Position numbers and translations under genes: made by a program
Shown: one piece after another, positions 5,025 to 10,488 of the stretch
Position numbering within the stretch: the stretch's first letter is position 1
Layout of the letters: each line of letters opens with the position of its first letter
Notes under the pieces: model-generated
Database searches by the model: none
Seen by the model: only the letters and a program-made list of their open reading frames with translations
Told to the model about the DNA's origin: nothing
From: a virus
Lineage: Duplodnaviria; Heunggongvirae; Uroviricota; Caudoviricetes
Length of the DNA: 11,180 nt
Strand: one strand, 5' to 3'
IMG/VR virus record: IMGVR_UViG_2859783438_000004

Positions 5025-6089
5025 ATGGCTAACGCCTGGCTCAGATTATGGCATGACATGCCAAATGACCCTAAGTGGCGAACAATTGCCAGGGTGTCAG
5101 GGCAGCCAATTGCAACAGTGATGGCAGTGTATATCCACCTCCTGGTGAGCGCGTCACGAAATGTCACGCGAGGTCACATTGATGTCACGACAGAAGATTT
5201 GGCAAGTGCGCTCGACGTGACAGAAGAGGTAATTGATTCAATTTTGCAGACGATGCAGGGGCGGGTACTTGATGGTGATTTAATCACTGGATGGGAAAAA
5301 CGCCAGGTGCTTAAAGAGGACAACGGCAATATTTCGCAAACCGCAAAATCTCCTGCAGAGCGCAAGAGGGCGCAGCGAGAGAGGGAAAGAAAGCGGGAAC
5401 AAAATGGCGATTGTCACGGCGCGTCACGAAATGTCACGCACATGTCACGACGAGTCACGACAGATACAGATAAAGATACAGATAAAGAAGATCAAAACAC
5501 TATGGTCCATGGCGTAAAAAACGCCACGAACCAGGCAGGGGATGTTCAGACCGTCAATCCTGGTCAGCCAGCAGGCTCGACACCGGAAGCCGATTCAGCG
5601 TATGCGCTGAAAGCCGATTCGGGCGCTGTGCAGCAGGTGATGACCGCAAGGCCGGAGCAATCACTCCAACTGCAGCAGCCTGAAGCCGATTCCGCCATTC
5701 AGCGGGAAGCCGATCGGGTAGCCCCGGAAAACACCGGGCAGCCTGTGGGACGAGTGGATTATCCGGATGTGTTCGAACAGGTCTGGCGGGAATACCCGTT
5801 GCGTGCCGGGGCAAACCCGAAGAAATCCGCATTCAGTGCCTGGAAGGCCAGATTGCGCGAGGGGGTGCCACCAGAGACCATGCTGGATGGTGTGAGGCGT
5901 TACGCGAGATACCTGGCGGCGACCGGGAAAGCGGGAACGGAATTTGTTCAGCGAGCGACGACGTTTTTTGGGCCGGACCGGAATTTTGAAAACCCCTGGT
6001 TGCTCCCGGTAAGCGGCACGAACAACCAGCGTTGTGTGAATCATATTTCTGAACCGGATACCGAAATTCCGCCGGGATTCAGGGGGTGA
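5025..6089 (+). CDS. Replication initiation protein (lambda O-like role) with the replication origin iterons embedded in the coding sequence
   Basis: ATG at 5025 after GAGG (ORF track begins at GTG 5019); two clusters of GTCACG repeats inside the gene; immediately upstream of, and overlapping the RBS of, the DnaC-like loader. Confidence 0.7.
   Translation: MANAWLRLWHDMPNDPKWRTIARVSGQPIATVMAVYIHLLVSASRNVTRGHIDVTTEDLASALDVTEEVIDSILQTMQGRVLDGDLITGWEKRQVLKEDNGNISQTAKSPAERKRAQRERERKREQNGDCHGASRNVTHMSRRVTTDTDKDTDKEDQNTMVHGVKNATNQAGDVQTVNPGQPAGSTPEADSAYALKADSGAVQQVMTARPEQSLQLQQPEADSAIQREADRVAPENTGQPVGRVDYPDVFEQVWREYPLRAGANPKKSAFSAWKARLREGVPPETMLDGVRRYARYLAATGKAGTEFVQRATTFFGPDRNFENPWLLPVSGTNNQRCVNHISEPDTEIPPGFRG
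5151..5193. repeat. Iteron cluster 1: four GTCACR cores at 10-11 bp spacing
   Basis: GTCACG at 5153, 5163 and 5184, GTCACA at 5173; an inverted copy GTGAC at 5216-5220; the 19-mer GCGTCACGAAATGTCACGC (5151-5169) recurs exactly at 5421-5439. Confidence 0.6.
5411..5486. repeat. Iteron cluster 2 (five GTCACG cores at 10-11 bp spacing) followed by a 12-bp tandem duplication GATACAGATAAA x2; putative ori core
   Basis: GTCACG at 5413, 5423, 5433, 5444, 5454; GATACAGATAAA at 5463-5474 and 5475-5486, A-rich. Confidence 0.6.
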
Positions 6090-6095
6090 TGTGGC

Positions 6096-6842
6096 ATGAA
6101 AAACATTGCGGCAGCCGGGGTTCTTGAACGTATTCACAGACTTGCACCACAGGGGGCGGTTCCACCGTACCGGACGGTGGAGGAGTGGCGGGAATGGCAA
6201 CTTGCTGAAGGACGAAAACGCAGCGAGGAGATTAACCGCCAGAATCGCCAGTTGCGGGTGGAAAAAATCCTGAATCGTTCGGGCATCCAGCCTCTGCACA
6301 GCAAATGCTCGTTTGCGAATTATCAGGTGCAGAACGACGGGCAAAAATACGCGCTGAGCCAGGCCAAATCCATAGCTGACGAACTGATGACCGGGTGCAC
6401 GAATTTTGTGTTCAGCGGTAAAACCGGCACCGGGAAAAATCACCTTGCAGCGGCGATGGGTAACCGGCTGATGGCGAAGGGGCGCAGCGTGATTATCGTC
6501 ACCGAGTCTGATGTCATGAGCGTGTTGCATGACAGCTACGACAACGGCAAATCCGGTGAAAAATTTTTACAGGAGCTTTGCGGGGTTGATTTGCTGGTCC
6601 TGGATGAAATAGGCATTCAGCGGGAGACGAAAAACGAGCAGGTGGTATTGCACCAGATAATTGATCGCCGGACAGCATCACTGTGCAGTGTCGGGATGTT
6701 AACAAACCTGAATCATGCCGCAATGAGCACGCTTCTTGGTGAGAGGATTATGGACCGCATGACCATGAACGGTTGTCGGTGGGTGACGTTTAACTGGGAT
6801 AGCTGGCGTTCAAATGTCAGCTTTCCGGGAGTTGTGAAGTAA
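6096..6842 (+). CDS. DnaC-like replicative helicase loader (AAA+ ATPase, IstB/DnaC family)
   Basis: Walker A GKTGTGKNHLAAA and Walker B LLVLDEIG; GGGGGTGA RBS overlapping the stop of the initiator gene. Confidence 0.85.
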   Translation: MKNIAAAGVLERIHRLAPQGAVPPYRTVEEWREWQLAEGRKRSEEINRQNRQLRVEKILNRSGIQPLHSKCSFANYQVQNDGQKYALSQAKSIADELMTGCTNFVFSGKTGTGKNHLAAAMGNRLMAKGRSVIIVTESDVMSVLHDSYDNGKSGEKFLQELCGVDLLVLDEIGIQRETKNEQVVLHQIIDRRTASLCSVGMLTNLNHAAMSTLLGERIMDRMTMNGCRWVTFNWDSWRSNVSFPGVVK

Positions 6843-8655: not shown

Positions 8656-10488
8656 ATGGCCCGCATGTTTGATACATTAGGATTTTACATTATGAATGTG
8701 CAACATTTTGATTTTTTTACAGATAATGAGTTTTCTAATCTGGAAAGATATCAAACTTGTAAAGCCATGGCCAAAGGTTATGCGGGCAATTACAAAACCG
8801 GGCAGTCAAGGTTGATGCATGCCCGCTCATACTGCTTCAGCATCGTAGCTGCATATTGGGATACCCTTGCAAAAAAGCAAAAAAGCAGCATTAAAATGAG
8901 GGCAGTACCGCACACTGTTTACATAGAAGACATTCCATGTGATGCACGCGAGCTCGCTGAACGAACAGGTGAGCTTATTGCTCAATTTCCGGCGGAGGAC
9001 GCTGGATATCTGATTGGGTCAATTTATACGGTAATGCTGCCATCCGCTTACCGTTCGGAATTGGGGGCTTACTATACCCCCCCACCTTTGGTAGCGCGTC
9101 TCTTGGACCTGGCTGAAAAGTCTGGTGTTGATTTTTCTCATGCATCGGTTATTGATCCTGCGTGTGGTGGCGGTGCATTTTTGGCACCAGTAGCCATTCG
9201 AATGTTAAAAAAAGACAAGGGGTCTTCCCCTGAATGGATGTTGAGGAGAATCAGTCGTCGTTTAAAGGGGATAGAAATCGATCCATTTGCGGCTTGGATG
9301 AGTTTGGTATTGCTCGAATCTGTACTAATGCCACTATGTGTAAAGGTAAAACGTAGATTGCCTGAAGATACAATTATTGTTGCTGATGCGCTTCAGCAAG
9401 ATAAATTTTCTGGTTATGATCTTGTGGTAGGGAATCCGCCTTACGGACGTGTCACTCTCGATATTAAAACGAGAGAAAAATATTCTCGTTCGTTATTTGG
9501 TCATGCAAATCTATATGGATTGTTCACCGACTTAGCTGTTCGCATGGTTAAAGAGAAAACAGGAGTTATTGCATTTCTTACGCCAACTTCTTTTCTTGGT
9601 GGGCAGTATTTCACCGCGCTGCGAACCCTTTTGACCGAAAAAACTACTCCGTATGCCCTTGATTTCGTCACTGACAGGGATGGGGTCTTTGACGATGTTC
9701 TCCAGGAAACAATGTTGACAGCATTCAAGGCGGGAGAACATAAAGTTCGGGCCCAGGTATCCTCACTTGTCCCTAAGGGGTTGAACAAAGCAAAAATTGA
9801 GAAAATAGGTAATGTTGATATAGAAAAAGGTGGAGCAACGTGGCTTTTGCCACGCGTTAAAGATGATGCCTGTTTTCTTAATGTATTAAAACAGATGTCT
9901 ACGCGTTTAGCTGATCTGGGATACTCAGTCTCTACAGGTCAGTTAGTCTGGAATCGATTTAAGTCGCAGTTGCGTACGACGAAAGGAAAAAATAGCTACC
10001 CATTAGTCTGGGCGGAATCAATAACTTCAGCTGGTTTTCGTTTTAGTGCAGACAGAAAAAATCATGTTCCCTATATCGATATAACCCCACAACAGGGTTT
10101 CCTTGTGACAAAATCTGAATGTGTGCTTGTTCAGCGGACAACATCGAAGGAACAGGACAGAAGGATTTTAGCGGCAATTTTACCTCAGGGATTTATAGAT
10201 GAAACTGGTGGCGTAGTAGTTGAAAACCATATTAATATTGTATATTCAAACGGATTGTTCTCTGCGGTTCGCCCTGATGTTATTGATATGCTACTTAATT
10301 CGCATGTTGTCGATCGGGCGTTCAGGTGTATAAGCGGAAGTGTTGCTGTTTCGGCCTATGAATTGAATTCAATCCCGTTGCCTTCTCTGGAGCAGGTGAT
10401 GGAGATTCAATCGTTAATTGATGCTGGCGTCCACAGACGGATTATTGAGAGAACTATCGCTGGTTTCTATGGAGTGATGATTGCATGA
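8656..10488 (+). CDS. Gamma-class N6-adenine DNA methyltransferase (Eco57I/TaqI-like motif order), 610 aa
   Basis: Motif X GAYYTPPPLVARLL, motif I VIDPACGGGAFL, motif IV VVGNPPYG in that order; about 300 aa C-terminal region as a candidate target-recognition domain. Start uncertain (ATG 8656 has no clear RBS; in-frame ATG at 8692 follows AGGA). Confidence 0.85.
   Translation: MARMFDTLGFYIMNVQHFDFFTDNEFSNLERYQTCKAMAKGYAGNYKTGQSRLMHARSYCFSIVAAYWDTLAKKQKSSIKMRAVPHTVYIEDIPCDARELAERTGELIAQFPAEDAGYLIGSIYTVMLPSAYRSELGAYYTPPPLVARLLDLAEKSGVDFSHASVIDPACGGGAFLAPVAIRMLKKDKGSSPEWMLRRISRRLKGIEIDPFAAWMSLVLLESVLMPLCVKVKRRLPEDTIIVADALQQDKFSGYDLVVGNPPYGRVTLDIKTREKYSRSLFGHANLYGLFTDLAVRMVKEKTGVIAFLTPTSFLGGQYFTALRTLLTEKTTPYALDFVTDRDGVFDDVLQETMLTAFKAGEHKVRAQVSSLVPKGLNKAKIEKIGNVDIEKGGATWLLPRVKDDACFLNVLKQMSTRLADLGYSVSTGQLVWNRFKSQLRTTKGKNSYPLVWAESITSAGFRFSADRKNHVPYIDITPQQGFLVTKSECVLVQRTTSKEQDRRILAAILPQGFIDETGGVVVENHINIVYSNGLFSAVRPDVIDMLLNSHVVDRAFRCISGSVAVSAYELNSIPLPSLEQVMEIQSLIDAGVHRRIIERTIAGFYGVMIA

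Follow-up and report, generated by a model that had tools for sequence, protein, structure and literature searches.

Replication origins located inside initiator genes are textbook elements. In phage lambda, the central part of gene O holds the origin, with its iterons and AT-rich tract (PMC7466680). SPP1 gp38 binds direct repeats beside an AT-rich unwinding element within gene 38 (PMC6316719), and TP901-1 ORF13 and Tuc2009 Rep2009 bind repeats in their own genes, which serve as the origin (PMC8965321). Here we describe a comparable arrangement in an 11,180-nucleotide stretch of a Caudoviricetes virus (IMG/VR record IMGVR_UViG_2859783438_000004; this whole stretch is termed the window herein), in which a replication initiator gene carries two separated arrays of the hexamer GTCACR, the second of them followed by a stretch of low duplex stability. 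Judging from the sequence and its relatives, the arrays and the low-stability stretch very likely constitute the replication origin of a lambdoid Escherichia coli prophage, placed inside its own initiator gene.

The upstream and downstream arrays comprised four and five direct copies, respectively, with spacings of 10/10/11 bp and 10/10/11/10 bp (Table 1). An exact 19-mer, GCGTCACGAAATGTCACGC, was present in both (5151-5169 and 5421-5439), and GATACAGATAAA occurred twice in tandem at 5463-5486. The hexamer coordinates, their 10-11 bp spacing, the shared 19-mer, and the tandem had been put forward in a sequence-only reading of the window, and direct reading and pattern search found every one of them in place. 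That inventory of direct copies had missed an inverted copy, located 32 bp beyond the fourth upstream repeat, which with its flanks is complementary at 11 of 12 positions to the repeat at 5443-5454. The extent then given to the feature, 5151-5486, takes in the listed repeats, but its limits need to be widened, as the low-stability stretch continues to ~5503 and is flanked by an imperfect palindrome at 5503-5533.

In total, GTCACR was not enriched in the window, with 12 matches on the two strands versus 9.46 expected from shuffles. However, 10 of these 12 fell within 307 bp, where ~0.26 would be expected (our own Poisson estimate, P ~1e-13). No further run of at least two helically spaced GTCAC was found in the window or in the 46-kb genome of the isolated E. 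coli phage Tritos. Among the hexamers, all three reading frames are used (TGT CAC G, G TCA CGA, and GTC ACG), which makes the period a property of the DNA and not of a peptide repeat. In the predicted protein model, the upstream array encodes residues 43-55, that is, the last part of helix 29-45 plus the loop preceding helix 56-63, and the inverted copy encodes the turn linking helices 56-63 and 67-77. The downstream array lies in a linker, after the basic stretch ERKRAQRERERKR.

Synonymous sites were compared across 23 GTCAC-type lineages with 65-78% amino acid identity, which were chosen for having at least three of the four upstream hexamers (L113, a near-duplicate of L111, was excluded). 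At the eight third-codon positions within the upstream hexamers, the mean entropy was 0.13 bit, versus a mean of 1.38 bit, near saturation, at the remaining 43 synonymous sites of the domain (Mann-Whitney p 5.6e-6). Val47 was encoded by GTC, Thr48 by ACG, Gly50 by GGT, and Val54 by GTC in all 23 lineages, and the Val65 codon in the inverted copy was GTG in 19 of 19.

The loop encoded by the upstream array was indel-prone in the alignment, and in-frame expansions of the array were observed in L092, L161, L163, and L124. In Escherichia albertii (L092, nt 1501-1900), an in-frame addition of 21 nt (10 + 11 bp) provides two more repeats and seven more residues, and some Pseudomonas loci have up to 10 upstream copies, which give long V-T, C-D, and C-H dipeptide insertions in the winged-helix loop. 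Because repeat expansions are tolerated in this loop, the peptides are a by-product of the DNA sites. The earlier remark that the repeats force SRNVT-type peptides on the protein agrees with this pattern, as extra repeats in relatives are extra loop residues.

Relatives were collected by scanning one genome per species with an alignment of the N-terminal domain (N-domain), which resulted in 74 loci from Gamma-, Beta-, Alpha-, and Deltaproteobacteria and some other lineages. To keep the test unbiased, the core 5-mer of each locus was taken from the downstream zone only and then counted in the upstream zone (gene nt 100-260). In 48 of 67 loci this downstream-defined core occurred at least three times upstream, versus 2 of 402 control zones. 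The sequence-only reading had considered the duplicated cluster unusual and had proposed a comparison with the ori regions of related phages; the comparison found the repeats present and, with an upstream array at the same codon positions in these 48 loci, showed the duplication to be the family norm. The main downstream run of the relatives contained 2-8 copies, mostly 3-6, at 10-11 bp spacing, and the spacing within arrays was 10 bp in 242 cases and 11 bp in 55. The layout with both arrays in the initiator gene spanned hosts from Enterobacteria to Desulfovibrio. The distance between the first repeats of the two arrays ranged from 157 to 309 bp, with only a moderate phase concentration (R 0.39-0.56), for which common descent and the gain or loss of entire repeats are confounding factors.

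The sequence of the core changed across the family while its placement did not. Core types included GTCACG, (C)GAACGC, GCAACG, GTGACG, GTAACG, and GGAACGC, all of which fit G-N-N-A-C-G; they tracked N-domain similarity, and differing cores occupied the same gene positions (~129-167 and ~350-440). Pseudomonas and Aeromonas phages, which have the N-domain alone in common with the window (~70% amino acid identity) and carry unrelated C-terminal domains (C-domains), had GTCAC at gene positions 129/139/149/160 and ~389-420 and the inverted copy at 193. More distant phages showed the same layout with other cores, a spring-water podovirus having CGAACGC and Ralstonia phage Hennie GCAACG. Of 24 GTCAC-type loci, 16 had an inverted copy at gene position 192-194; in the remainder it was moved or absent. 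The N-domain and its repeats were accompanied by varied partners: a DnaC-like loader in the window and in an Aeromonas phage, a primase-helicase fusion in a Pseudomonas phage, DnaB in Ralstonia phage Hennie and in a cyanophage, and no phage partner in Tritos. This modularity across C-domains and partners supports a division of labor between the domains.

Two loci from gammaproteobacterial and Pseudomonas metagenome-assembled genomes (L118 and L120) encode N-domains 66-71% identical to that of the window, yet have (C)GAACGC repeats. By sequence comparison this pair is the closest apparent natural specificity switch and a good one for mapping the residues that read the site. No clear pattern of specificity-determining residues was seen when the recognition helices of the different core types were inspected.

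The least stable 40-mer of the initiator gene, 5464-5503, begins 5 bases past the last downstream repeat. It is 75% A+T and has a dG of -43.2, which is ~2.8 standard deviations below the window mean (-54.6, standard deviation 4.1). In 51 of 68 relatives, the corresponding 40-mer begins between -10 and +40 nt from the last downstream repeat, and the exceptions were mostly artefacts of stray k-mer matches. Irrespective of the repeat core, the low-stability stretch of the relatives nearly always consists of GATAAA/GATACA or other purine-rich repeats. Aspartate in this stretch is encoded by GAT and GAC in a ratio of 193:12, versus 325:349 elsewhere in these genes, and the bias toward A/T codons is strong even in hosts with high G+C at third codon positions. 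Population variation was followed in IMG/VR scan matches restricted to near-identical E. coli copies (L007-L086), among which the number of GATAMA hexamers in the stretch is polymorphic (6-nt indels, ~gene nt 435-500) and the 4 + 5 repeat count is kept in 70 of 80. The palindrome flanking the stretch is terminator-like on the - strand, and hairpins at its position are weakly enriched in relatives (score 6.1 versus 5.1).

The initiator gene starts at an ATG with GAGG ahead of it (5016-5019), and the proteins of its relatives begin with MANAW or MANSW. Its product matched PHROG 3729, "replication initiation protein" (E 3e-250), and carries the RefSeq name "phage replisome organizer". The predicted model of the N-domain is a winged helix, for which the nearest shape was the DnaD N-terminal domain. 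Pfam Phage_rep_org_N (PF09681) aligned with the N-domain almost end to end (profile positions 1-118 of 121), with a score of 12.8 bits (E 0.12) that is below the gathering cut-off of 23.3. Pfam scans with E up to 5 gave no Phage_rep_O match for the initiator; together with the DnaD-like fold, this rules out a homologue of lambda O.

The last 24 residues of the initiator (...NHISEPDTEIPPGFRG) are similar to the very end of host DnaT, and Rac YdaU has the same tail. Residues 331-354 aligned with positions 156-179 of the 179 in the NCBIfam DnaT model NF002770 (18.1 bits; cut-off 201) and with the DnaT chains 6aep, 2ru8, and 9zbt in the PDB, which were the sole initiator match in a sequence search of solved structures. 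As only these residues match, identity with full-length DnaT is ruled out. The tail may be a peptide that these proteins share for docking with the DnaB/DnaC machinery, and it probably also explains the label "Primosomal protein I" in some phage records, a label that, on this alignment, overstates the relation to DnaT.

Table 1. Coordinates of the initiator gene, the repeat arrays, and associated features in the window.
Feature	Position	Strand	Description	Basis
Replication initiator gene	5025-6089	+	"Phage replisome organizer", 354 aa	Open reading frame list, PHROG, RefSeq name
N-terminal winged-helix domain coding region	5025-5315	+	aa 1-97, presumed repeat-binding	
Upstream array	5153, 5163, 5173, 5184; spans 5153-5189	+	Four direct GTCAC(G/A); GTCACA at 5173	Direct reading, pattern search
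Inverted repeat copy	5216-5221	-	CGTGAC on the + strand	Pattern search
Downstream array	5413, 5423, 5433, 5444, 5454; spans 5413-5459	+	Five direct GTCACG	Direct reading, pattern search
Presumed DNA unwinding element	5460-5503	+	A+T- and purine-rich, holds GATACAGATAAA x2	Stability profile
Imperfect palindrome	5503-5533	.	TGGTCCATGGCGT AAAAA ACGCCACGAACCA; 13-bp stem, 5-nt loop; flanks the low-stability stretch	
C-terminal tail coding region	6015-6086	+	...EPDTEIPPGFRG; host DnaT C-terminus-like	NCBIfam, PDB matches
DnaC-like helicase loader gene	6096-6842	+	248 aa	NCBIfam, Pfam, PHROG

From this layout we infer which protein binds the repeats, where the strands open, how the helicase is loaded, and what the upstream array contributes. 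The N-terminal winged-helix domain would bind the 6-bp core GTCACG, and because the cores are one helical turn apart, the bound initiators would be aligned on one face of the DNA. There would be two initiator-binding arrays, one with four direct and one inverted copy (5153-5221) and one with five direct copies. The complex on the downstream array is predicted to open the adjoining A+T- and purine-rich stretch, after which the C-domain and its DnaT-like tail would bring in host DnaB by way of the phage DnaC-like loader. The downstream array and the low-stability stretch would be the universal core of the origin. The upstream array is best seen as a putative accessory initiator-binding array, which may reinforce the complex through a loop to the core or may act in control. 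Its accessory standing is suggested by its absence from 12 of 67 relatives and by the sufficiency of the proximal iterons in lambda, and its strict conservation elsewhere suggests that it matters.

Several points weigh against the origin assignment. No published binding, unwinding, or replication assay was found for this initiator family, so that every functional step above is a prediction. DnaA boxes (TTWTNCACA, at most one mismatch) were not enriched (28 versus 23.9 expected), and none was located at the arrays. Promoter- and terminator-like sites in 4100-6200 did not exceed shuffles; those matched in the origin region were a weak promoter-like site formed by the repeats on the - strand and the palindrome as a - strand terminator. 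Selecting lineages with at least three of four hexamers biases the synonymous-site test somewhat, a bias mitigated by the fact that 23 of 25 loci at 65-90% identity qualified, the non-qualifiers being L118 and L120 with their AACGC-type cores. The codon bias of the low-stability stretch is partly circular, as the stretch was selected as the least stable segment and encodes a hydrophilic D/K/T/E linker. Finally, an exact-word search found no upstream array in 12 of 67 loci, mostly those with at most 55% identity, so that this array is not essential to the origin of the family.

The alternative that survives best concerns the upstream array (5153-5221), which might be a control element outside the initiating complex. 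We hold this to be possible without thinking it probable, and it is compatible with an origin at the downstream array. Bound initiator could block transcription from the early promoter and so reduce the supply of initiator and loader, or the array could switch the origin off by pairing with the downstream array or with a sister copy, as in the "handcuffing" of plasmid iterons. Such a role would fit the 12 of 67 relatives in which the downstream array stands alone, as well as the extra inverted copy of largely conserved position, which recalls how plasmid Rep proteins repress their own genes through inverted half-sites. It would also fit lambda, where the two iterons beside the AT-rich region are enough for unwinding and for replication in vitro (PMC7466680). 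However, no promoter was found at or just downstream of the upstream array, which is situated ~130 bp inside the gene and not at an operator, and the weakly bound distal extra iterons of Stx phages are still needed for replication (PMC7466680). The present evidence accommodates control and enhancement of the origin alike.

A stronger version of the two-array origin, in which site and protein co-evolve in a coupled manner, seems unlikely to us. The repeat-encoded loop residues would then aid recognition or oligomerization, or the arrays would have to loop together for firing, and the origin would be obligatorily two-part. As the upstream array is, throughout a large family of proteobacterial phages, written in the codons of a permissive loop of the DNA-binding domain, any change or expansion of the site automatically changes the protein. 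Against an obligatory requirement for two arrays in cis stand the same 12 of 67 relatives.

It is more doubtful still, to the point of being improbable, that the repeats are bound by another protein, such as the upstream cII/YdaT-like regulator or a host factor, for a function other than replication. The upstream neighbor is indeed a DNA-binding regulator, and the role of the initiator as repeat binder is itself predicted. However, the core follows the N-domain subfamily, whereas upstream neighbors, C-domains, and hosts vary independently; both arrays remain within the initiator gene from Enterobacteria to Desulfovibrio; and repeats followed by a low-stability stretch are the classical layout of an origin.

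That the repeats are a mere peptide repeat or neutral internal duplication with no DNA-level function is scarcely credible: the common 19-mer does yield the SRNVT peptide twice, but this explanation is already contradicted by the synonymous sites frozen inside the hexamers and by an architecture that persists across the family while the sequence changes, and it fits neither the use of three frames with a 10-11 bp period that is not a multiple of 3 nor the position of the upstream array in an indel-prone loop tolerating long repeat-encoded insertions.

The genes around the putative intragenic origin are in the same order as in lambda. The product of the loader gene directly downstream of the initiator gene scored 499 bits with NCBIfam PRK12377 and 296 bits with DnaC PRK07952, the latter below its own cut-off of 357 bits, and matched Pfam IstB_IS21 and PHROG 50. 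Upstream of the initiator gene are a divergent cI-like repressor gene, a cro-like gene, and a cII/YdaT-like gene. Several isolated E. coli phages (Tritos, Evi, and others) match this region at 96-97.5% identity, and at least 80% of the initiator gene was present in 1,647 of 5,426 complete E. coli genomes (~30%). In Tritos (97% identical; L003/L166, record 33216-33638), the initiator gene with both arrays is directly followed by a DUF977 gene, and there is no DnaC-like gene. The phage loader thus appears dispensable on this comparison, and the initiator may use host DnaC.

Other features of the window were located away from the arrays. A 300-nt direct repeat with 99% identity (98-397 and 1772-2071, 1,674 bp apart), upstream of the immunity region, duplicates the small open reading frames 134-522 and 1808-2196. 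No known RNA family was found in the origin region; elsewhere in the window, Rfam identified a C4 antisense RNA (76.7 bits, 1065-1152, - strand) and isrK (61.2 bits, 1177-1253, - strand), both within or beside an Ash/Rha-family gene (516-1304, - strand); by these matches the region is a putative antirepressor control module of P1/P7 type in a lambdoid prophage. Downstream of the replication module, 8656-10488 encodes a 610-residue DNA methyltransferase of Eco57I/N6_Mtase type.

The initiator gene is found in phages of many Proteobacteria, yet it is below the Pfam threshold, and we found no experimental description of its origin. The analysis provides a map that is ready for experiments, with a core site, two arrays, an unwinding stretch, a modular C-domain, and natural specificity variants. 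This variant series, some members of which have N-domains 66-71% identical to that of the window, could show how a DnaD-like winged helix reads DNA and could serve to build mutually compatible phage-derived replicons. The element overturns nothing in the textbook picture of origins inside initiator genes and is a well-supported but fairly ordinary one of its kind. What goes beyond the ordinary is the two-array layout conserved across the family, the placement of one array inside the codons of the DNA-binding domain, and the natural specificity series.

Split origins, in which one short site occurs in two arrays bound by a single initiator, are exemplified by ori/crr of phage P4 and by iteron plasmids that have control arrays besides the origin, such as P1 with incC/incA. 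One array adjoins the unwinding region in these systems, and the arrays are on either side of the rep gene or kilobases from it. The locus described here resembles the P4 type in having two separated arrays of the same core (48 of 67 loci), which is predicted to be the initiator site, but differs from both systems in that the two arrays lie inside coding sequence, one of them in the codons of the DNA-binding domain.

The Rac prophage of E. coli K-12 has the same gene order (racR, ydaS, ydaT, ydaU, ydaV, ydaW), and YdaU has the C-terminal IPPGFRG tail in common with the initiator. In Rac ydaU (L165, 3760-4160), ATGTTCAA-type repeats are followed by GATACAGATAAAGATCT and this by a C7...G5 palindrome, and the DnaC-like ydaV is the next gene. 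Unlike the initiator of the window, YdaU has DUF1376 as its N-domain, and the repeat word and spacing (33 and 12 bp) differ. Rac has been reported with an active origin, oriJ (PMC3945230), and by analogy the ydaU repeat region may be its location.

As in lambda, the candidate origin occupies the central part of the initiator gene, an AT-rich tract comes after the repeats, and N-terminal binding and C-terminal partner recruitment are, by prediction, split between domains. The gene order (cI-like, cro-like, cII-like, initiator, loader) is lambda-like as well. As in Stx phages, extra iterons are extra amino acids in the protein (PMC7466680); a paper on the Stx "non-lambdoid replication region" makes no mention of repeats or of DnaC. 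Unlike lambda, the locus has two separated arrays and a DnaC-like partner in place of lambda P, and its initiator has no sequence relationship to lambda O, with 6-bp cores one helical turn apart in place of ~19-bp iterons. The original proposal of a prophage origin made of in-gene repeats and an A/T-rich segment, put forward with reference to the O gene of lambdoid phages, is strongly supported by the comparative evidence, with a DnaD-like initiator here instead of lambda O.

The replisome-organizer origins of Gram-positive phages that we compared were those of SPP1 (gp38/oriL), TP901-1 (ORF13), Tuc2009 (Rep2009), and r1t (ORF11). Like them, the locus has direct repeats within the gene, here predicted to be bound by the initiator, together with an adjoining AT-rich element and a loader or helicase gene next to it (PMC6316719; PMC8965321), and its DnaD-like winged-helix N-domain aligns end to end with Phage_rep_org_N. 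Unlike them, it scores far below the Pfam threshold (12.8 versus 23.3), has Proteobacteria as hosts, and ends in a DnaT-like C-terminal tail. SPP1 has its second origin, oriR, far off in the genome (PMC6316719), whereas here the two arrays are ~260 bp apart in one gene, and no distant second array like oriR was found in the 46-kb Tritos genome. Although the initiator formally falls below both the Phage_rep_O and the Phage_rep_org_N thresholds, the predicted mode of working of this element places it with the replisome-organizer and lambda-type origins.

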